Under the pieces are notes generated by a model. That model was given only the letters and a program-made list of their open reading frames with translations, did no database searches and was not told the DNA's origin. Positions 1,078 to 60,293 of a DNA stretch of 64,000 nucleotides are shown piece by piece. A program made the position numbers and the translations under genes. The stretch is from Escherichia phage CMS-2020a, in the sequence record CP053388.1. One strand, 5' to 3'. Position 1 is the stretch's first letter; the number at the start of each line of letters is the position of its first letter.

Positions 1078-1399
1078 TCTTCACGCCATAAGCGGCCAGA
1101 CCCAGCAGCAGCGCGGTAATCAGGAACGACGTTATCTTTGAGATAATGCCGCCAAAGAACCCGCTGGAGATGGCGTCTAGCCGATTAAGTAGTTTGTCCA
1201 GGTTGGAGTGCTGAATGCTGTGTTGCGAAGGCGTCATATCGCCAAAGTAGGTTTTGAGCTGGTCGTTGACCTCCTGGCCAATTTCCTCACGCAACTCCTT
1301 ACCTAATTTGCCGACAACTTCACGCGCAACGATAGCGGCAATGCGCTCTACCTGCTCTGGCGTTACGCCTGCCATCTCGTTCGACATTATTTCCTCCAT
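1064..1399 (-). CDS. hypothetical small membrane protein (C-terminal TM; holin-like candidate)
   Basis: 111-aa ORF, C-terminal hydrophobic helix; overlaps start of downstream gene. Confidence 0.4.
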   Translation of the reverse strand: MEEIMSNEMAGVTPEQVERIAAIVAREVVGKLGKELREEIGQEVNDQLKTYFGDMTPSQHSIQHSNLDKLLNRLDAISSGFFGGIISKITSFLITALLLGLAAYGVKNGLQ

Positions 1400-1450
1400 G
1401 AATCGTCAAATCGGGATGGCGGTTTTATATCATAAAACGCCCACACTTGG

Positions 1451-1465
1451 TAGGTAAGTACTTAC
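1451..1465. promoter_or_regulatory. motif B palindrome
   Basis: taggtaagtacttac. Confidence 0.45.
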
Positions 1466-2301
1466 ACATGAGCGCCGTAAATTGCCCCAGCTTTAGTCCA
1501 TGTAGGCGCGTTGCCAGTTACGGCTTTACCAGCTGCTCCGCCGTTATATTCTGTACCGTTACCTTGAGTATTACATCTTCCTCCAGCAGCACCGACATTA
1601 CCACCCGAACCGCCTGTATATGCACTAAGAGACCCCTCACCAACAGATCCTTTACCAGGAGCGGAAATAGTACCAGCAGTTGCACCGGAACTCATATGAG
1701 AGGAAGACCCACCAGCACCGAATGGGCGACCACCGCCACCACCAAATATTAGTTTACCCCTGTTACCGCCGCCACCGCCGCCGCCACCTCCAGCGATTGC
1801 ACCATTATTCGTAATACGCAAGCGTGTACCGATGCCATTATTAATTGCGTTACCACCAGCAGCACCGGCAGCGTTACTACCACCATTGCCACCGCGTCCA
1901 TAGACAGTCACACCTGCGTTGATTACAAGGCTGATATAAGAGTTGGTAAGTGAACTCGGGAAATCTAAACATGGCACGCCGCTACTGGACGACACCAGAT
2001 CCCCTGTAATGGTAACAACGACTGGCGTCGCCCCCTGGGATTTTAAATAGTTGATCAGTGTGTCTTTGTTGTAGTTATGATTCGCACCGATGCTGTAATG
2101 AATTTCCTTAGAACGACCTGCTAACTGAGACATATTCCCAGCAGCAGACAATTGCACCGCCGTTCGAGCTGCACTCATCCATCTCTGGCCTGTCACACTG
2201 ACAGCCGAAGACCCAATCCAACCGGGAACACCGACAATTGGCACATCTAATCTCCTTTTTGATGTGAATATCCTGAATTGGTGAGGGTGGCCCCTCACCA
2301 T
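1462..2301 (-). CDS. glycine-rich protein (poly-Gly tracts; candidate adhesin or tail-fibre accessory)
   Basis: 279 aa with runs such as GGGGGGGGGN and many GGxGG repeats, directly downstream of the tail fibre gene. Confidence 0.6.
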   Translation of the reverse strand: MVRGHPHQFRIFTSKRRLDVPIVGVPGWIGSSAVSVTGQRWMSAARTAVQLSAAGNMSQLAGRSKEIHYSIGANHNYNKDTLINYLKSQGATPVVVTITGDLVSSSSGVPCLDFPSSLTNSYISLVINAGVTVYGRGGNGGSNAAGAAGGNAINNGIGTRLRITNNGAIAGGGGGGGGGNRGKLIFGGGGGRPFGAGGSSSHMSSGATAGTISAPGKGSVGEGSLSAYTGGSGGNVGAAGGRCNTQGNGTEYNGGAAGKAVTGNAPTWTKAGAIYGAHV

Positions 2302-2310
2302 TCACCTTGA

Positions 2311-5300
2311 TTACATTTTTGCCTTCAGTTCGCGCACTTCCTCGCGCAGCTCTTTGACAGCCTCGACCAACATGCCGATAACGCCGTTGTAGTTAAGACG
2401 CAGACGAGGCTCTCCTGACTGATCGTTATGGTCAACCGTTACCAGTTCAGGCTGAACATTCTGGACGTCCTGAGCGATGAGGCCGCCAGACTGCTCATAC
2501 CGGTCACAGACCTGAATCTCGTACAGAACACCTTCGATCCGATCCAGCTTGTCGAGCGCTCGTTCAATCTTGCGAATATTGCGTTTGCTACGACGGTCAG
2601 AGCGGATATAAACGTCATTAAAGCTGCCATTACCGCCACAAACCCAAGTACCATCATTCTGGAGGTATGCGTTCGCATCCGTGCCGTTTGCGGTACGTGA
2701 GTTGTTGATCATGTAAAAACCAAACTGACTGTTTCCCAAGCCACCCAAGAAGAATTTGCGATCCGCGTGGTCTTGTCTCAACAACGCTTGTGCAGAGCTT
2801 GTACTTACAGCGTTCCTCCCGAAGATGACGTTCTGGTTACGCATATCTATCCACGCGCCAGAGCCGCTGTTGATGGAAAAACGGTTGGCGTAAACCCACG
2901 CACTTGACGTGATGTCACCCGTTACACTCAACGGCTTAAGGCTTTGCAGCGTGCTATTAACGAACCTAAAAACATGGGCGCTATTGGCGTAAACATCCAG
3001 AATGCCATCTCCGTTCTGTTTAAAGCCGGTGTCATTGTCACCCAGAACAATGGAATTACCGCCAAGAGCACTGGATGTACCGATGCCCAGTGCACCATTC
3101 AATTGACCTCCAGATAATGATAACGCCCCAACATCAGCAGCAGTCGGTTTAATGTGCGAACTGTAAATTACATATACAGTTCCATCTGTCAGGCCTGTTG
3201 GTTTATTCGCTGTATAAGTTGGTGATGTATGAATCGTTACGCTGGCGTTACTGGTATAATCCCACTGGATATTAACACCTGTGGCGTAATTACCTATTTC
3301 TACATAAATGTCATAGGTATCACCGGATGTATTCACCCATGCAAAATTAGTAAATCCAACCGAGGTCCGTCGCCATAATGCACCAGTAATACCTTTGGGG
3401 TTCCCATTTCCTGCACGCAGAACCAGCTCAGAGATGCCTGCTTGCTGCGGGGAGCCAACGTTAAACCCTGCGCCACCAATCAGGCTTATGTAAACCACGG
3501 AACTGGCTTGTGGCATGGTTACAGTTGCCAGCTTGAACCATCCGGCACCACCACTAAAAGACATTGTTGCTGAGTTGATCGTGCCTATAGACCTTGGAGT
3601 TAGCTCAATATTTTTAGAACCGTCAAACGACACCCCATTTATAGTTCTAGCGGTTTGTAACTTGGTCGCTGTCGCTGCATTACCGGTTGTGTTCTGGTTA
3701 CCAGCAATGTTTACACCCGGCAGGTTGATATTGGCGGAGCCATCGAATGACACGCCGCCTATTGTGCGTGCTGTTTGCAGTTTTGTTGCAGTTGCAGCAT
3801 TACCGTTCAAACTACCATTGATGCCGCCAGTAACATTGAGTCCATTACCGATCGTAACAGCACCGCTGGTATTATTAATTATAATAGGTCGCAAACCGTT
3901 CCATGAACCTAATGTGTCTCCTGATGCTGTTAGCATGAAATATGTGTTCGATCCATCATTACGGATAAAGAATCCATAGTTGCCATAGGCAATGCGCAGA
4001 CCATTCGCCGATTTTGAAATAATCTCGCCAGCAGCAGTTAATCCGCCAGTTAACGCTCCTCCAGAAAGCGATAATGCTCCTACATCAGAAGCTGTTGGTT
4101 TGTTTCTAGTGTTATAAGAACGACGCCAGCCTGGCGCGTAATCACTGCCATTGTACACATAAATAAATTCCGCATTGTTAACACCACCATGACCCGATGT
4201 TGTTGTCGTTGTAACACGAATAGTGTAGTGGCTTGTTGCCTTATTACTAAACACCTCAATCACGGAACCAGATAGATCGATCCTACCGCAACCAGTGTCG
4301 TCTATATAATTATTGTTGGCGTAAGTCCATGAGCACCGTGCGATCCAATGTTTGTTTGTAAATGCCCCCTGATTATTTAGCCAAGTTATAAATTGAGCAG
4401 TCGTAAATGCCGTTCCGTTACCACTATTTAACCATCCAGCGGCAGCGGTTGGCGCGTTTATATCAGCCGGCTGAGGCATAAATCCAGTCGTGTAAACCTG
4501 CTCCCAACCACTTTCAAAACCATAGCCATCTCTTGAGGAACGGTAGAACAGACCACCATTTTTATAGTGAGCTTTAATTTGAAGCGTACGGCAACTACCT
4601 AAACCGGTATAAAAGTTGGCAAGAATATAACTGTGGCCTGTTCTATTTACATTATAAGCACCAGATTCAGCATTCCACGGCACGCCACCATCAGCATCCG
4701 CATATGACCCTGTTGCCCTTCTTGCGAAAGCGGCAACATGCGCAGCGGTTAAAGTGATATCAGTAGAACCATCAAATGGAACACCGGATATTTTTCTTAC
4801 CGTCTGAAGTTTTGTAGCAGTTGCAGCATTACCAGTGGTGTTCTGATTACCCGTAGTGTTTACACCTGGAAGGTTAATATTTGCAGAACCGTCGAAAACA
4901 ACTCCACCGATAGATCTTGCCGTCTGCAATTTCGTGGCTGTACTTGCATTACCATTCAATGAACCAGTTAATCCACCTGTAACAGACAACGGACCTGAAA
5001 CTGTTCCTCCGGTTGTTGGCAGTGCTCCAATATCTAACGGCGTCGGTTTCTGATGTGTGCTATACATCGTATAAACAACACCATCGGTAACGCTGGAAGG
5101 CTTACTCGCTGAATATGTTGGCGATGTATAAATAGAAACTGTCGCATTTGCAGTACAATCCCAATGGATATTTACACGAGTCGCATAATTGCCAATCTCA
5201 ACGTAAATATCATATGTATCGCCGGATGTGTTGATCCAGGCGAAATTCGTTAACCCGACGGCTGTACGCTTCCACAAAGCCCCGGTAATTCCTTTGGGGT

Positions 5301-50115: not shown

Positions 50116-50642
50116 CGTGCTGCCCCCTCTTTGGTGAAAATGCCTGCTGCAATGCTGTTTATGATGCTGTCAGTGCATGGAGTAGAAAGCTGGGCATCTC
50201 CAGCAATTTTCATGACCTCAACATCCGCATATCGAATACCGAGGTGTATCAGACCGGCTATACCTGACTTAAGTCGAACATTTTCCATAAACAGATCTTT
50301 TTCCCGCTGTTTAGCGCCTTCCAACTCCATCGACAATTTTTCCAACTGCTCTTTATGCTTCTTGTATTCCTGATACGCGTGCCAAGACTGACCTTTGCGC
50401 ACACTATCAGTGATATCAGCAACCTGCTCTGGTGTTAGCGTGGTCAGTGGCTGTGCTGGAAAAATCATCACTTGCCCGGCATCCCAATCAAAACCCGCCT
50501 GAATTGACTGAACCTCAACTGATGGTGTTGAACCGATGCGACCAGGCGAATGAACAACGATCGTTACATCCATATCGCGACGATGGCTGTGGTTGTTGGA
50601 CAAAATACGATTCACCAACTCAGAAAATTTGGATAATTTCAT
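50112..50642 (-). CDS. hypothetical protein (start set at MKLSKF)
   Basis: ATG overlaps stop of upstream gene (ATGA). Confidence 0.45.
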
Positions 50643-50962
50643 GCTGATCTCTCTTTCTCTCCCCGGATAATTCTGTTGCACACATCCACACACTCGTCGC
50701 AGATGAAAACGGCGTCCCCAGCAATTAACTTTTTGACGGCGTACTGGGATTTGTTGCAGAAGCTGCAACAAAGTGTTCGCCTGACTGATAAGGATGGAGC
50801 GCCAGATGTCAGCCGCTCCATATCGTTCTTGCGACGCAATATCACACGGCTGAACTCAACCAGTTTCTCCGGGGATATCTCCTCCTCCGTAGCGAGCGTC
50901 TCTAGTCGTTCGAGTATGTTGAAGGCTTTTTCTTGGGTAATAGCAGAGTGCGATGTGGTCAT
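50639..50962 (-). CDS. ClpX-type C4 zinc-finger domain protein
   Basis: [35 protein letters not shown] closely parallels the ClpX N-terminal zinc-binding domain. Confidence 0.6.
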
Positions 50963-53121: not shown

Positions 53122-53142
53122 CTAAGTAAGTATTTACCTATC
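53122..53142. promoter_or_regulatory. motif B palindrome
   Basis: ctaagtaagtatttacctatc at the MTase gene stop. Confidence 0.5.
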
Positions 53143-54826
53143 ATTTAACGCGTTTGAAAACGTATACGCTGACTGTGATCCCTGTGTCTTCAAACTCGTT
53201 GGTAAACGACTTCCCTCTGGCATAAACGTAATTATCCATCGTCATCCAGTCCAGTATTGGCGCAGTGCCCGGCAATACTGCTACAAGACGCCCGCCGACT
53301 TTCAGATGCCCCAGCGCAGCCAGCGTGTGCTCTCTATGACGACCAAGCGAGTACGGCGGGTTCATAACGATTTTGTCGAACTGATAACCTACGTTGTCCT
53401 CAGACCACTTTATGAAGTCGCAGCAAATCGTGTTCGTATACCCTTTTCCGCGCAGGATATCAGCGAAGAGAGGTGCGATTTCTATGCAGGTAACATCTTC
53501 CAGATCGGCGTTGATATAGGCCAGAAGATCCCCACGTCCGGCTTGAGGCTCCAGCAGCTTCTCACCAGACTTCAATTCAGTGGCTCTGGCAACGTACTCA
53601 GCAATCAAGCGTGGGGTAGGGTAGAACTGGTGTGATTTTGTATCCGGTATTAATCCGGTAGCCACAATCGTATTTAGCGTATGGCCGATCTCATACGGGA
53701 ACTGCCAGTGTTTTTTCTCCTGCACGCCGCCAATGAAGCTCAGTGTGCGCTCAAGCTCTTCCACCTGCGACTTCTGGAGAGCTGAATCAGAGAAGTACCA
53801 TACGCCTTTGTCTTTGCTCAATCGCCCGTCACGAAGCGCAGTGCGAACCGGCACGGAGATCGTCTTCTGGATTAACCCGAACTGCTTTGGTGCCCGTGTT
53901 TTTGGCGCAGTTCGGCATGGCGCGGGGATTGCAGCAGGCATACTGTAAGCCAGCACCTCATTCAACTTCCAGGCCACGTCAGGATGTATTTCAAAGTGAA
54001 CGTTGCCGTTCTTGAACATCTTCACGCGCATCAGATTTCCATCGACGTTCATCCAGTCACCGGTCTGGCAGTCGTTTGCTCGATACGCAGCTGATAGCAC
54101 CTCAGCAGTGCGGTTGATGGTAATAAATTCTTTGTGCGCGAAGAAATGAAGCAAGACACGCAGATCGTCGATGTAGTCCTCTTTGCGATAGTTCACGCTA
54201 ACGCTGTCCCGCCAGAAATCAGAAATGCAGTCAGCGATTATCAGACGCTCGCTGAAACCGTTTGTCTTATTTGTCTTGTGCGCAGGACTCAGCGCCTTAA
54301 ACAAGCCATACACGCGCTCAGAGAGATATTTGTGCCTGTCATTCAGCAAATTAAGCATCGTGGGTATGACCGTTTCTGCTTTGAACTCCGGTACACCAAC
54401 GAACTCTTTAACCTTCATCTGGTAGCCGGTTCTGTCAGTTTTGATGACTTCCTGTTTGCCCTCTATAAACTGCTCGCGCCACTCATCTCGACGGGAAGCT
54501 GGCATGATCAGCAAAACGTTAGTCATGTCCGTGACCTTCCTCCAGTACTCGGCCCAAATATTCTGTTTCACCCATTCCAGATCGACTTTATCCAACCAAC
54601 CTCGATTTAAACGCGAGCGATCTTCATCTGGTCGATGGTTTAGTCTCAGCAGGCGATTAATCATGTTGTGGCGTTCGTCGCCATAAACGAAGTCGTGTAC
54701 CTGATACATGAAGGCGATCTCTTTCTCGCACTCGGCCACAATTTCGTGGATGACGTTCATTTCCTGCCGATAGTCGATAGCAGTGTTTGAGTTGGCATCG
54801 TCGATGATGGAAAGGGCTGTATTCAT
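53141..54826 (-). CDS. DNA methyltransferase (NPPY class) with ~380-aa N-terminal domain of unknown function
   Basis: C-terminal FYPTP, EPQAGRGDL (SAM-binding) and IVMNPPY motifs. Confidence 0.7.
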   Translation of the reverse strand: MNTALSIIDDANSNTAIDYRQEMNVIHEIVAECEKEIAFMYQVHDFVYGDERHNMINRLLRLNHRPDEDRSRLNRGWLDKVDLEWVKQNIWAEYWRKVTDMTNVLLIMPASRRDEWREQFIEGKQEVIKTDRTGYQMKVKEFVGVPEFKAETVIPTMLNLLNDRHKYLSERVYGLFKALSPAHKTNKTNGFSERLIIADCISDFWRDSVSVNYRKEDYIDDLRVLLHFFAHKEFITINRTAEVLSAAYRANDCQTGDWMNVDGNLMRVKMFKNGNVHFEIHPDVAWKLNEVLAYSMPAAIPAPCRTAPKTRAPKQFGLIQKTISVPVRTALRDGRLSKDKGVWYFSDSALQKSQVEELERTLSFIGGVQEKKHWQFPYEIGHTLNTIVATGLIPDTKSHQFYPTPRLIAEYVARATELKSGEKLLEPQAGRGDLLAYINADLEDVTCIEIAPLFADILRGKGYTNTICCDFIKWSEDNVGYQFDKIVMNPPYSLGRHREHTLAALGHLKVGGRLVAVLPGTAPILDWMTMDNYVYARGKSFTNEFEDTGITVSVYVFKRVK

Positions 54827-56590: not shown

Positions 56591-56749
56591 ATTAACACGT
56601 TGCTTTACGGACTAGCGGATAAGCGAAGTAGATCGCCAGACCAATGAGGACGCCATCAGAAATGACAGACATCATCTTTCCCGTAAAATCCACCAACACC
56701 GCCATCACCAGAAGAGCAATGACGATCACAAGCCGGAATCTCTCAAGCA

Positions 56750-57175
56750 TTAGAGATAAGCATCCAGTGACAACTGAAGCGCCTGGGCGATCTTTTTCAG
56801 TGCCTGCTCTTCTTGTTCACCAATGCCGTCCTGATCGGCAATATCAAGGCACAGACACAGAACATCGACCGCCTCTGGAGTACCCGCAATATCAGACAGC
56901 TCACGAATAGCCTGTGCATTAGCAGAACGAGGGGACGCTTCGTAACGAGCACGGATATTGGCGCTCATTTGGGCAATTTCACCAGCAAACGGAGAAAACG
57001 CAGGCAGAGCTGCAATTGTCTTCTCAAGAATGGCAATTTCTTTTGCGTCACATGTGCCGTCGGCATAGGAGATCATGTACGCGCCCCACACGGTGGCCTC
57101 AACCGCATCACGGTTCTCCATTTTTTTGACTTCGATAACAGCTTTACGAGTTTTCTTTTTGAAGAAACCTAACAT
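56750..57175 (-). CDS. TerB-like domain protein
   Basis: Tandem YADG / DIADQDG acidic motifs. Confidence 0.5.
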   Translation of the reverse strand: MLGFFKKKTRKAVIEVKKMENRDAVEATVWGAYMISYADGTCDAKEIAILEKTIAALPAFSPFAGEIAQMSANIRARYEASPRSANAQAIRELSDIAGTPEAVDVLCLCLDIADQDGIGEQEEQALKKIAQALQLSLDAYL

Positions 57176-59699: not shown

Positions 59700-60293
59700 C
59701 TAAGCAGCCTTCTTTGATGGTCTTTTTTTCCTGATCACATTCGCAGGATCATACCCTCCCAGACTTTTCATGACGTCCAAAGGGATCTTGCTTATAGAGT
59801 GCCCAGCGTCCTGACAGAATCCTCGAAAAACAACGAGCATACTGCCACCTGGGTTGATGTTTACTTCTACCTGACCCAGATTTACGTCAGGCTCGACAAA
59901 CGCTACGCGGCCACCAGACAGAATAATCGTCTCATTCGCACACTCTGTTGCACGCTCATACCACTTTGTATCTAGGGATTGAGGAATTAGCATCACTGTT
60001 GTAACTCCACGAGCCTGCTCACGTATAGCCGCATCAATCCAGGGGGAGATTTTGGAGTAGGGTGGATTGAGGAAGGCAATTGTACCTGGCTGTCCCCATT
60101 CAGATTTCAAAGCATCACGCTCAACGCCTATGAAATTAGGCAGCTTTGCATTGTCCTTGTTGCAGGCAACGTCAACATCAAATGTCACTCCAAGATAACG
60201 TTGAATGGCAGAAAACAGCCAGTCAGGTGTTCTCCAGAGGTCACGAAGAGAGTTGTCGCGCTTTCGCTGTTTGATTTTTTCGGCTGCAATCAT
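59700..60293 (-). CDS. phage-type DNA N6-adenine methyltransferase (Dam family)
   Basis: WRTPDWLF, DVDVAC, FLNPPY motifs. Confidence 0.7.
   Translation of the reverse strand: MIAAEKIKQRKRDNSLRDLWRTPDWLFSAIQRYLGVTFDVDVACNKDNAKLPNFIGVERDALKSEWGQPGTIAFLNPPYSKISPWIDAAIREQARGVTTVMLIPQSLDTKWYERATECANETIILSGGRVAFVEPDVNLGQVEVNINPGGSMLVVFRGFCQDAGHSISKIPLDVMKSLGGYDPANVIRKKRPSKKAA

Follow-up and report, generated by a model that had tools for sequence, protein, structure and literature searches.

In the amino-methyltransferases of the TaqI/EcoKI kind, recognition lies outside the catalytic core, in a C-terminal target-recognition domain in the case of M.TaqI and in a specificity-subunit partner in that of EcoKI HsdM. 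The same kind of core, with its TP motif and NPP(Y/F), also travels on mobile elements within the polyvalent proteins, of which DarB of phage P1 is the archetype; a TP-capped helix and NPP(Y/F) form the signature that places their methyltransferases in the EcoKI/TaqI-like gamma class, and an anti-restriction role has been proposed for them (Iyer et al. 2017, PMC5512222). Orphan methyltransferases of the plasmid leading region are likewise a recognised anti-defence class (PMC11541004), and M.EcoGIX and M.BceJIII, plasmid-borne orphan adenine methyltransferases specific for single strands, shield entering DNA from restriction (Fomenkov et al. 2020, PMC7736820).

Here we consider a protein of 561 residues that has such a core, has neither M.TaqI's domain nor HsdM's partner and carries instead a large module in front of the core. 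How might such an enzyme engage its substrate, and what might the module be doing there? The gene lies in a 64-kb window (the whole stretch of DNA analysed, 64,000 nucleotides) that is an SSU5/pHCM2-like phage-plasmid, its DNA 98% identical to that of Escherichia phage Cyrano, which is the phage-plasmid pLF82 of E. coli LF82. The reading frame proposed for it in the initial annotation is the one found in the list of open reading frames (Table 1). Its orthologues are SSU5_095 and CYRAN_90, with DNA identities for the gene of 89.9% against Salmonella phage SSU5 and 98.3% against Cyrano, and E. coli plasmid NZ_CP020118 encodes an identical protein. PHROG 6263 covers the protein from end to end (E 7e-300), and the dN/dS of the whole gene against the SSU5 orthologue (0.086) speaks of purifying selection. 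Databases call the protein "DNA methyltransferase" in SSU5 and "DUF4942 domain-containing protein" in Cyrano. In an RNA-seq table for LF82, the values for CYRAN_90 (2.8-6.0) fall within the range of its neighbours, as do those for CYRAN_79; the table is uninformative on the timing of expression.

Table 1. Positions in the window of the fusion gene, its parts and motifs and the second methyltransferase gene. Domain borders were drawn from structure models, alignments and a stand-alone homologue.
Feature	Nucleotides	Strand	Residues	Basis
Whole gene, 561-aa DUF4942-methyltransferase fusion plus stop	53141..54826	(-)	1-561	ORF list, ATG start
Lineage-variable N-terminal helical region	54566..54826	(-)	1-87	AlphaFold2 models, homologue identity
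DUF4942 module	53927..54565	(-)	88-300	Pfam PF13708, stand-alone homologue, invariant columns, dN/dS
Conserved loop LSPAHKTN	54269-54292	(-)	179-186	DUF4942 alignment
Basic, proline-rich linker	53855..53926	(-)	301-324	Composition and conservation
Small alpha/beta subdomain beside methyltransferase core	53651..53854	(-)	325-392	Secondary structure in models
Minimal class-I SAM-dependent amino-methyltransferase core plus stop	53141..53650	(-)	393-561	Motifs
Motif X/TP, QFYPTP	53612-53629	(-)	400-405	Core motif
Motif I, LEPQAGRGDL (EPQAGRG at 426-432)	53525-53554	(-)	425-434	Core motif
E449 and D470-F471		(-)	449, 470-471	Core motifs
Motif IV, NPPY	53351-53362	(-)	489-492	Core motif
Second methyltransferase, putative 197-aa phage Dam-family N6-adenine enzyme	59700..60293	(-)		PF05869, TIGR01712, PHROG 111

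The claim that the C terminus is an amino-methyltransferase core holds: QFYPTP, LEPQAGRGDL and NPPY are all in place, and alignments of 25 and 48 homologues, which reach down to about 26% identity, show little or no variation at the core motifs. This segment is a minimal class-I SAM methyltransferase of the TaqI/EcoKI gamma type, with the Rossmann-like fold of the class-I SAM-dependent enzymes, with SAM-binding motifs X and I-III preceding motif IV and with the TP-capped helix and NPPY of the gamma class. As far as motifs can tell, the last two indicate methylation of an exocyclic amino group, that is, N6-adenine methylation, and the different base modification that had also been suggested for the protein finds no support.

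Is the adenine, then, in DNA or in RNA? Fold alone cannot settle the matter, because the top two structural neighbours of the core are the RNA methyltransferases METTL5 and PH1948 and because Erm and KsgA score near the DNA enzymes. One might accordingly imagine a protein that methylates an adenine of rRNA, tRNA or mRNA, whether the host's or the phage's, in the manner of METTL5, Erm and KsgA, and in which DUF4942 is a module for binding RNA or the ribosome. We find this quite improbable. The top sequence-profile match of the core is M.TaqI, whereas the NCBIfam models score far beneath their cut-offs (ksgA 15.7 bits against 171; Erm 11.7-13.2 against 212-350); QFYPTP is of the TP type seen in the gamma-class enzymes of DNA (PMC5512222); and the neighbouring genes are those of DNA replication, recombination and DNA methylation. 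The substrate of the 561-aa enzyme is thus probably DNA.

What sets this protein apart from the textbook enzymes is where it ends. It stops 69 residues past NPPY, and therefore the usual C-terminal target-recognition domain is absent; nor is a specificity-subunit gene found among the neighbours of the gene. Compared with M.TaqI and EcoKI HsdM, the core has been cut to 169 residues, and N-terminal to it sits a 392-residue module without a solved relative; when the family profile is compared with the sequences of the PDB, the matches are confined to the methyltransferase core. Since the C-terminal recognition domain is missing, substrate engagement would have to come from these N-terminal 392 residues, in other words from DUF4942, the basic linker and the variable alpha/beta subdomain.

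An N-terminal domain followed by a gamma-class methyltransferase also recalls MmeI and Eco57I, and it could be argued that this single chain serves in restriction-modification or defence, as Type IIG enzymes do, and that DUF4942 is a nuclease that has escaped recognition; some relatives are indeed named "restriction methylase" in databases, and there are weak PADLOC matches to the MTase_II and REase_MTase_IIG models and to mad2. We give this idea hardly any credence. The PADLOC matches, like the Pfam methyltransferase matches, are confined to the core, and the C-terminal target-recognition domain is the very part that the protein does without. Searches of Pfam, PADLOC and known folds with residues 1-392 returned no nuclease family or fold, there is no PD-(D/E)xK or HNH signature, and the strands expected to bear such a motif are not conserved. 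The genes, moreover, sit among phage early genes and orphan methyltransferases, not in defence islands. Inspection of the alignments led us to set aside DUF4942 as a nuclease, its conserved positions fitting neither the PD-(D/E)xK nor the HNH pattern.

The N-terminal part had been described at first as a domain with no recognisable motif, and this needs correcting. It matches PF13708 at 74 bits (E 1.7e-20), where the cut-off is 25 and homologues reach 78 and 236, and belongs, with the rest of the protein, to PHROG 6263; yet DUF4942 is a catalogued family with neither an assigned function nor a solved structural relative. The structure prediction that had been proposed as a check gave a confident model of residues 1-392 from the 48-sequence alignment (pLDDT 87.8, pTM 0.81) and yielded no solved relative: fold searches and profile searches of PDB sequences found none for DUF4942 or for the N-terminal 392 residues, and a Foldseek search of viral predicted structures returned only two uncharacterised proteins. 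Nor did fold and profile searches match the N-terminal region to a standard target-recognition domain, which is the match that, by the terms of the initial annotation, would have counted against it. Our searches of the literature on DUF4942/PF13708, on the pHCM2 methylase and on the SSU5 and Cyrano methyltransferase found no functional data, and in the portions of published text available DUF4942 apparently appears as an annotation only.

The module is, all the same, one that selection has looked after closely. Across 48 sequences, 13 residues of DUF4942 are invariant (W95, T102, L179, S180, H183, T185, N186, L222, W258, D262, H277, N289 and L292), many of them polar and gathered in or close to a single loop (S180, H183, T185, N186, D262, H277 and N289). 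Against the SSU5 orthologue, its dN/dS of 0.042 is the lowest of any segment, that of the methyltransferase core being 0.107, and among distant homologues the share of columns conserved at 90% or more is 23% in both. DUF4942 is, in short, about as conserved as the catalytic core and at least as constrained. The variation lies to either side of it. Residues 1-87, of which 1-15 are disordered and 20-48 and 52-62 helical in the AlphaFold2 models, are only 17-25% identical in distant homologues and have a dN/dS of 0.158; the small alpha/beta subdomain at residues 325-392 has a dN/dS of 0.114 against SSU5. The most variable stretches of all, in those homologues, are this subdomain (16-35% identity) and residues 1-120 (17-43%).

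DUF4942 also lives by itself. A stand-alone E. coli protein of 281 residues, which accounts for the score of 236 bits on PF13708, aligns from about residue 88 to about residue 300, the alignment breaking off exactly at the linker. Its gene adjoins radC-, cbeA/cbtA- and yeeW-like genes in a CP4-type island, and at this one locus, the one read, no methyltransferase gene was seen beside it. Enterobacteriaceae have this stand-alone subfamily in great abundance (2354 matching protein clusters, with clustering at 90% identity and E<=0.001), and in chimeric gene calls it is joined to Antirestrict, CbtA, RadC and DUF932 domains. These CP4-island proteins, of the L0010/Aec79 type, are homologous to the module over residues ~88-300 and share with it the motifs LSxx(H/Y)KTN, FGxKxI, DLxR, GxAH and RLN. 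Unlike the 561-aa protein, they have no methyltransferase domain, and their neighbours are toxin-antitoxin, RadC and antirestriction genes. Four polar residues (S180, T185, N186 and H277) are common to the fused and the stand-alone proteins, and a further three (H183, D262 and N289) do not vary among the fused ones.

Between module and core runs the linker, which is strongly basic (pI 11.1) and has conserved residues of its own (I300, P301, R305, K314 and F316). It coincides with a boundary both of modules and of recombination: one homologue, P0044, is 88-95% identical to the window's protein upstream of the linker point and 49% identical downstream. On the far side of it, PHROG 9133, a profile of 1259 positions, matches residues 328-560 as a single unit.

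Could we be looking at two proteins in one? That is, DUF4942 might be an autonomous effector, for instance a factor in anti-defence or establishment, or an enzyme with an active site of its own, to which the methyltransferase is joined as a separable activity. Nearly everything in the last three paragraphs can be enlisted for this: the existence of the module alone, the company it keeps in the islands and in chimeras, the polar residues that it keeps in both settings, its place as the most constrained segment, the recombination boundary falling exactly at the linker and a fold without a solved relative; and the multi-domain polyvalent proteins of phages and plasmids offer a model for such an assembly. 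We judge it unlikely nonetheless, while keeping it in view. What can be said of DUF4942 itself is more limited. It is unlikely to be a classical, fast-evolving specificity domain, because it is strongly conserved, also stands alone and is bounded by recombination at the linker; its conservation and stand-alone existence suggest that it has a conserved function other than the setting of specificity. It looks like a conserved unit for general engagement of a substrate or partner, or else one with an activity of its own. For tuning specificity, the variable subdomain at residues 325-392 is a better candidate than DUF4942, and we infer a division of labour in which the subdomain would do the tuning and the module would provide general engagement of DNA or of a partner.

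The fusion is no accident of one genome. With the N-terminal region alone as query, we recovered 609 clusters at 50% identity, almost all of them 510-580 residues long, and therefore the fusion is fixed in the family. More than 2,000 plasmid records, IncHI2 conjugative plasmids at about 30% identity among them, have a copy of nearly full length, and 273 matching stretches were confirmed in a collection of one genome per species; the 80 loci listed from that scan are mostly in Gamma-, Beta- and Alphaproteobacteria. The hosts of the fused gene are prophages, phage-plasmids and IncHI2 plasmids, and it sometimes stands beside other orphan DNA methyltransferases.

All the contexts that we read in detail are early or replication regions of mobile elements, including the nin-type regions of temperate phages. 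The window's copy separates RNase H, a DnaQ-like exonuclease, DHFR and ThyX from Ea22/Eaa-like genes. The copy in a Variovorax prophage lies downstream of repressor and cro-like genes and overlaps the beginning of an N6_N4 methyltransferase gene; in another prophage, of enterobacteria, the gene comes after lambda-P-like replication genes and has N6_N4 and C5 methyltransferases on its flanks; on IncHI2-type plasmids a Dam gene and a ParB-HTH gene are close to it; and in Pseudomonas phage vB_Pae_U7 it sits between a primase/helicase gene and NinB/NinG. Another orphan DNA methyltransferase is nearby in six of the eight contexts read gene by gene and, within 8 kb, another DNA methyltransferase at no fewer than 14 of the 80 genome loci, a lower bound, as the search was made by phmmer with a few single-sequence seeds. 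A count of neighbouring methyltransferases by motif IV alone has been set aside because its 26 open reading frames were no better than the 22 of a reversed-motif control.

The window itself has such a companion. A six-frame scan of the 64 kb found the amino-methyltransferase motif IV in exactly two open reading frames, with NPPY in each, so that the two methyltransferases claimed for it are indeed two. Several methyltransferases per temperate phage are common, and a pair is unsurprising in kind. The second, a small Dam-type enzyme as had been supposed, exceeds over its full length the curated cut-offs of both Pfam Dam PF05869 (131.8 bits where 28.1 are required; E 2.5e-38) and NCBIfam TIGR01712 phage_N6A_met (113.9 bits where 97.05 are required); it also matches PHROG 111 and has its NPPY at about residues 76-79. 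The gene goes by "Adenine methyltransferase" in the annotation of Cyrano and by "DNA methyltransferase" in that of SSU5, and a search with the protein sequence gave no solved structure. Judged by these family matches, it is an ordinary phage Dam-family methyltransferase. Characterised members of that family, phage T1 Dam for example, methylate GATC, and we assume from these relatives that the 197-aa enzyme would do the same.

How does the larger protein compare with the systems with which we began? With the polyvalent proteins it shares the core, to which PHROG profiles 1,259-3,925 positions long and derived from giant proteins are a match, and one blast match falls within a 3,421-aa Pseudoalteromonas phage protein whose annotation is a DdrB-like ParB domain. 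The protein is not itself a giant, however, and virion packaging forms no part of its evidence; phage P1 shows no BLAST-level similarity to it. In the DarB-like dyad an SF2/SNF2 helicase lies C-terminal to the methyltransferase, whereas our protein has no helicase and ends at the core. DarB-type proteins also have, N-terminal to the methyltransferase, the four-helix LPD36 with a GXGU motif (PMC5512222), in contrast to residues 325-392, which are predicted to be alpha/beta and have a conserved IGGV, a comparison made by description and not with an LPD36 profile.

Another system to compare is YdcA of the IncF leading region, a 187-aa "putative adenine-specific DNA methylase" encoded between an antirestriction gene and ssb/psiA. 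It has the same minimal core, with 33% identity over residues 400-517 and NPPF, and is likewise uncharacterised; it differs in standing alone, after YdbA. YdbA was considered as a split-off N-terminal domain and ruled out: it is a DUF3560 protein, unrelated to DUF4942 (hhalign probability 0.2%). M.EcoGIX was ruled out as a known relative as well. It and M.BceJIII are beta-class enzymes with DPPY (PMC7736820), as against the gamma order and NPPY of the 561-aa protein, and M.EcoGIX is therefore a possible functional analogue and not a relative.

The 561-aa protein, generically annotated in databases, fits a known kind, the orphan adenine methyltransferases of phages and plasmids, and its architecture is uncharacterised and non-canonical. 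The explanation that we prefer, and hold with moderate confidence, is that it is an orphan N6-adenine DNA methyltransferase, a trimmed TaqI/EcoKI core that relies on its N-terminal modules and that, together with the Dam-family enzyme, protects the DNA of its element from restriction. The enzyme would work without a partner endonuclease. Its gene would be expressed alongside those that serve the phage-plasmid early, in replication and in nucleotide metabolism; the enzyme would place methyl groups on adenines of the element itself and, with the Dam-family enzyme encoded 5 kb away, would blunt host restriction after infection or transfer. Protection from restriction is the probable benefit, and such a role fits the contexts, from phage early, replication and nin-type regions to phage-plasmids and IncHI2 plasmids with orphan methyltransferases nearby. 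Our searches of the literature found no methylome or restriction data for SSU5-like elements.

There is a bolder reading of DUF4942, and we think it a doubtful one: that it is an establishment module of mobile elements, hitherto overlooked and new in structure, which gives the fused core its targeting by way of DNA structure or a partner protein and with no classical sequence-reading domain. Such a module may engage DNA or the replisome, or may counter defence, and in CP4-type islands it may work alone.

Orphan methyltransferases help phages and plasmids, including the phage-plasmids and IncHI2 plasmids that bear resistance, to cross restriction barriers. In this family, one of them breaks the textbook layout, its C-terminal recognition domain replaced by an N-terminal module more constrained than the catalytic core. 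Solving the function of DUF4942 would explain the thousands of proteins annotated as "DUF4942 domain-containing" in Enterobacteriaceae, and it might yield a new DNA-targeting or anti-defence module.

P0044, one of the individual protein matches to the window's DUF4942-methyltransferase fusion, shares 88-95% identity with that protein over residues 1-300 and only 49% over residues 325-561, the latter as in the Klebsiella lineage. Judged from its sequence, P0044 is a natural recombinant whose crossover lies at the basic linker; a crossover at that point marks DUF4942 on one side, and the subdomain plus methyltransferase on the other, as exchangeable units.

Does either unit, or any piece of one, travel without the other? 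DUF4942 does so in E. coli, as a protein lacking the methyltransferase, and this stand-alone subfamily is very common in Enterobacteriaceae, with 2354 clusters matched. Some sources call its members "restriction methylase" or "Aec79"; the gene in the table sits in a CP4-type island, directly downstream of radC-, cbeA-, cbtA- and yeeW(DUF5983)-like genes. A smaller piece, covering only the first 60-130 residues at 65-100% identity to the window protein, recurs in short open reading frames and fragments (plasmid matches H38, H39 and H58; proteins P0121, P0123, P0124, P0171 and P0181), carried by further plasmids and contigs of Klebsiella and E. coli, and PHROGs 16000 and 25525 are likewise limited to this N-terminal piece. 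These may be truncated remnants, or they may be an N-terminal unit in independent use.

Features of the window and of the related loci (L-numbers; coordinates within each locus)
Feature	Location	Strand	Remarks
Stand-alone DUF4942 protein, 281 aa	L008:4746-5591, E. coli NZ_CP134663	+	no methyltransferase
YdbA-YdcA pair	L002:4506-6477, IncF plasmid OZ026784	+	leading region
DUF4942-methyltransferase gene with upstream genes	L003:3561-5906 and L009:2314-6860		IncHI2-type plasmids
Fusion-family member with neighbours	L010:1803-9940		metagenomic phage contig ERR4504459_2127
TerB-domain protein and the small ORF after it	window 56592-57175	-	PF05099, E 2.4e-7
107-aa protein, C-terminal ClpX-type C4 zinc finger	window 50639-50962	-	PF06689

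On the IncF plasmid, YdbA (453 aa, DUF3560) is followed directly by YdcA, a minimal methyltransferase (187 aa, NPPF) with 33% identity to the window's methyltransferase core. DUF3560 and DUF4942 show no relationship. The pair may represent, split over two genes, an arrangement analogous to an accessory module joined to a minimal methyltransferase. On the two IncHI2-type plasmids, whose sequences are only distantly related, the same gene arrangement is kept: ahead of the DUF4942-methyltransferase gene lie a gene for a 360-387-aa protein, with a weak ParB-HTH match in the L003 copy, and a divergent Dam (MethyltransfD12) gene. L009 has, further upstream, a separate ParB-HTH gene (296 aa).

In the distant phage L010, the neighbours of the fusion-family member encode a NUDIX hydrolase, a DUF5131 (Gp37/Gp68-type) protein and a 1142-aa product whose match to ADP-ribosyl-exotoxin is faint; the genes gathered here could have the modification of the host or of DNA as their common theme.

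Within the window itself, the TerB-domain gene is followed by a small hydrophobic ORF, and the annotation of Cyrano, a near-identical phage-plasmid, names the two products P1 TciA-like and TciB-like proteins. The zinc finger of the 107-aa protein (aa 65-100, E 1.2e-15) comes with no AAA+ module; by its domain match, this is a phage protein resembling a stand-alone ClpX zinc-binding domain, and it could interfere with, or mimic, substrate or adaptor recognition by ClpX.
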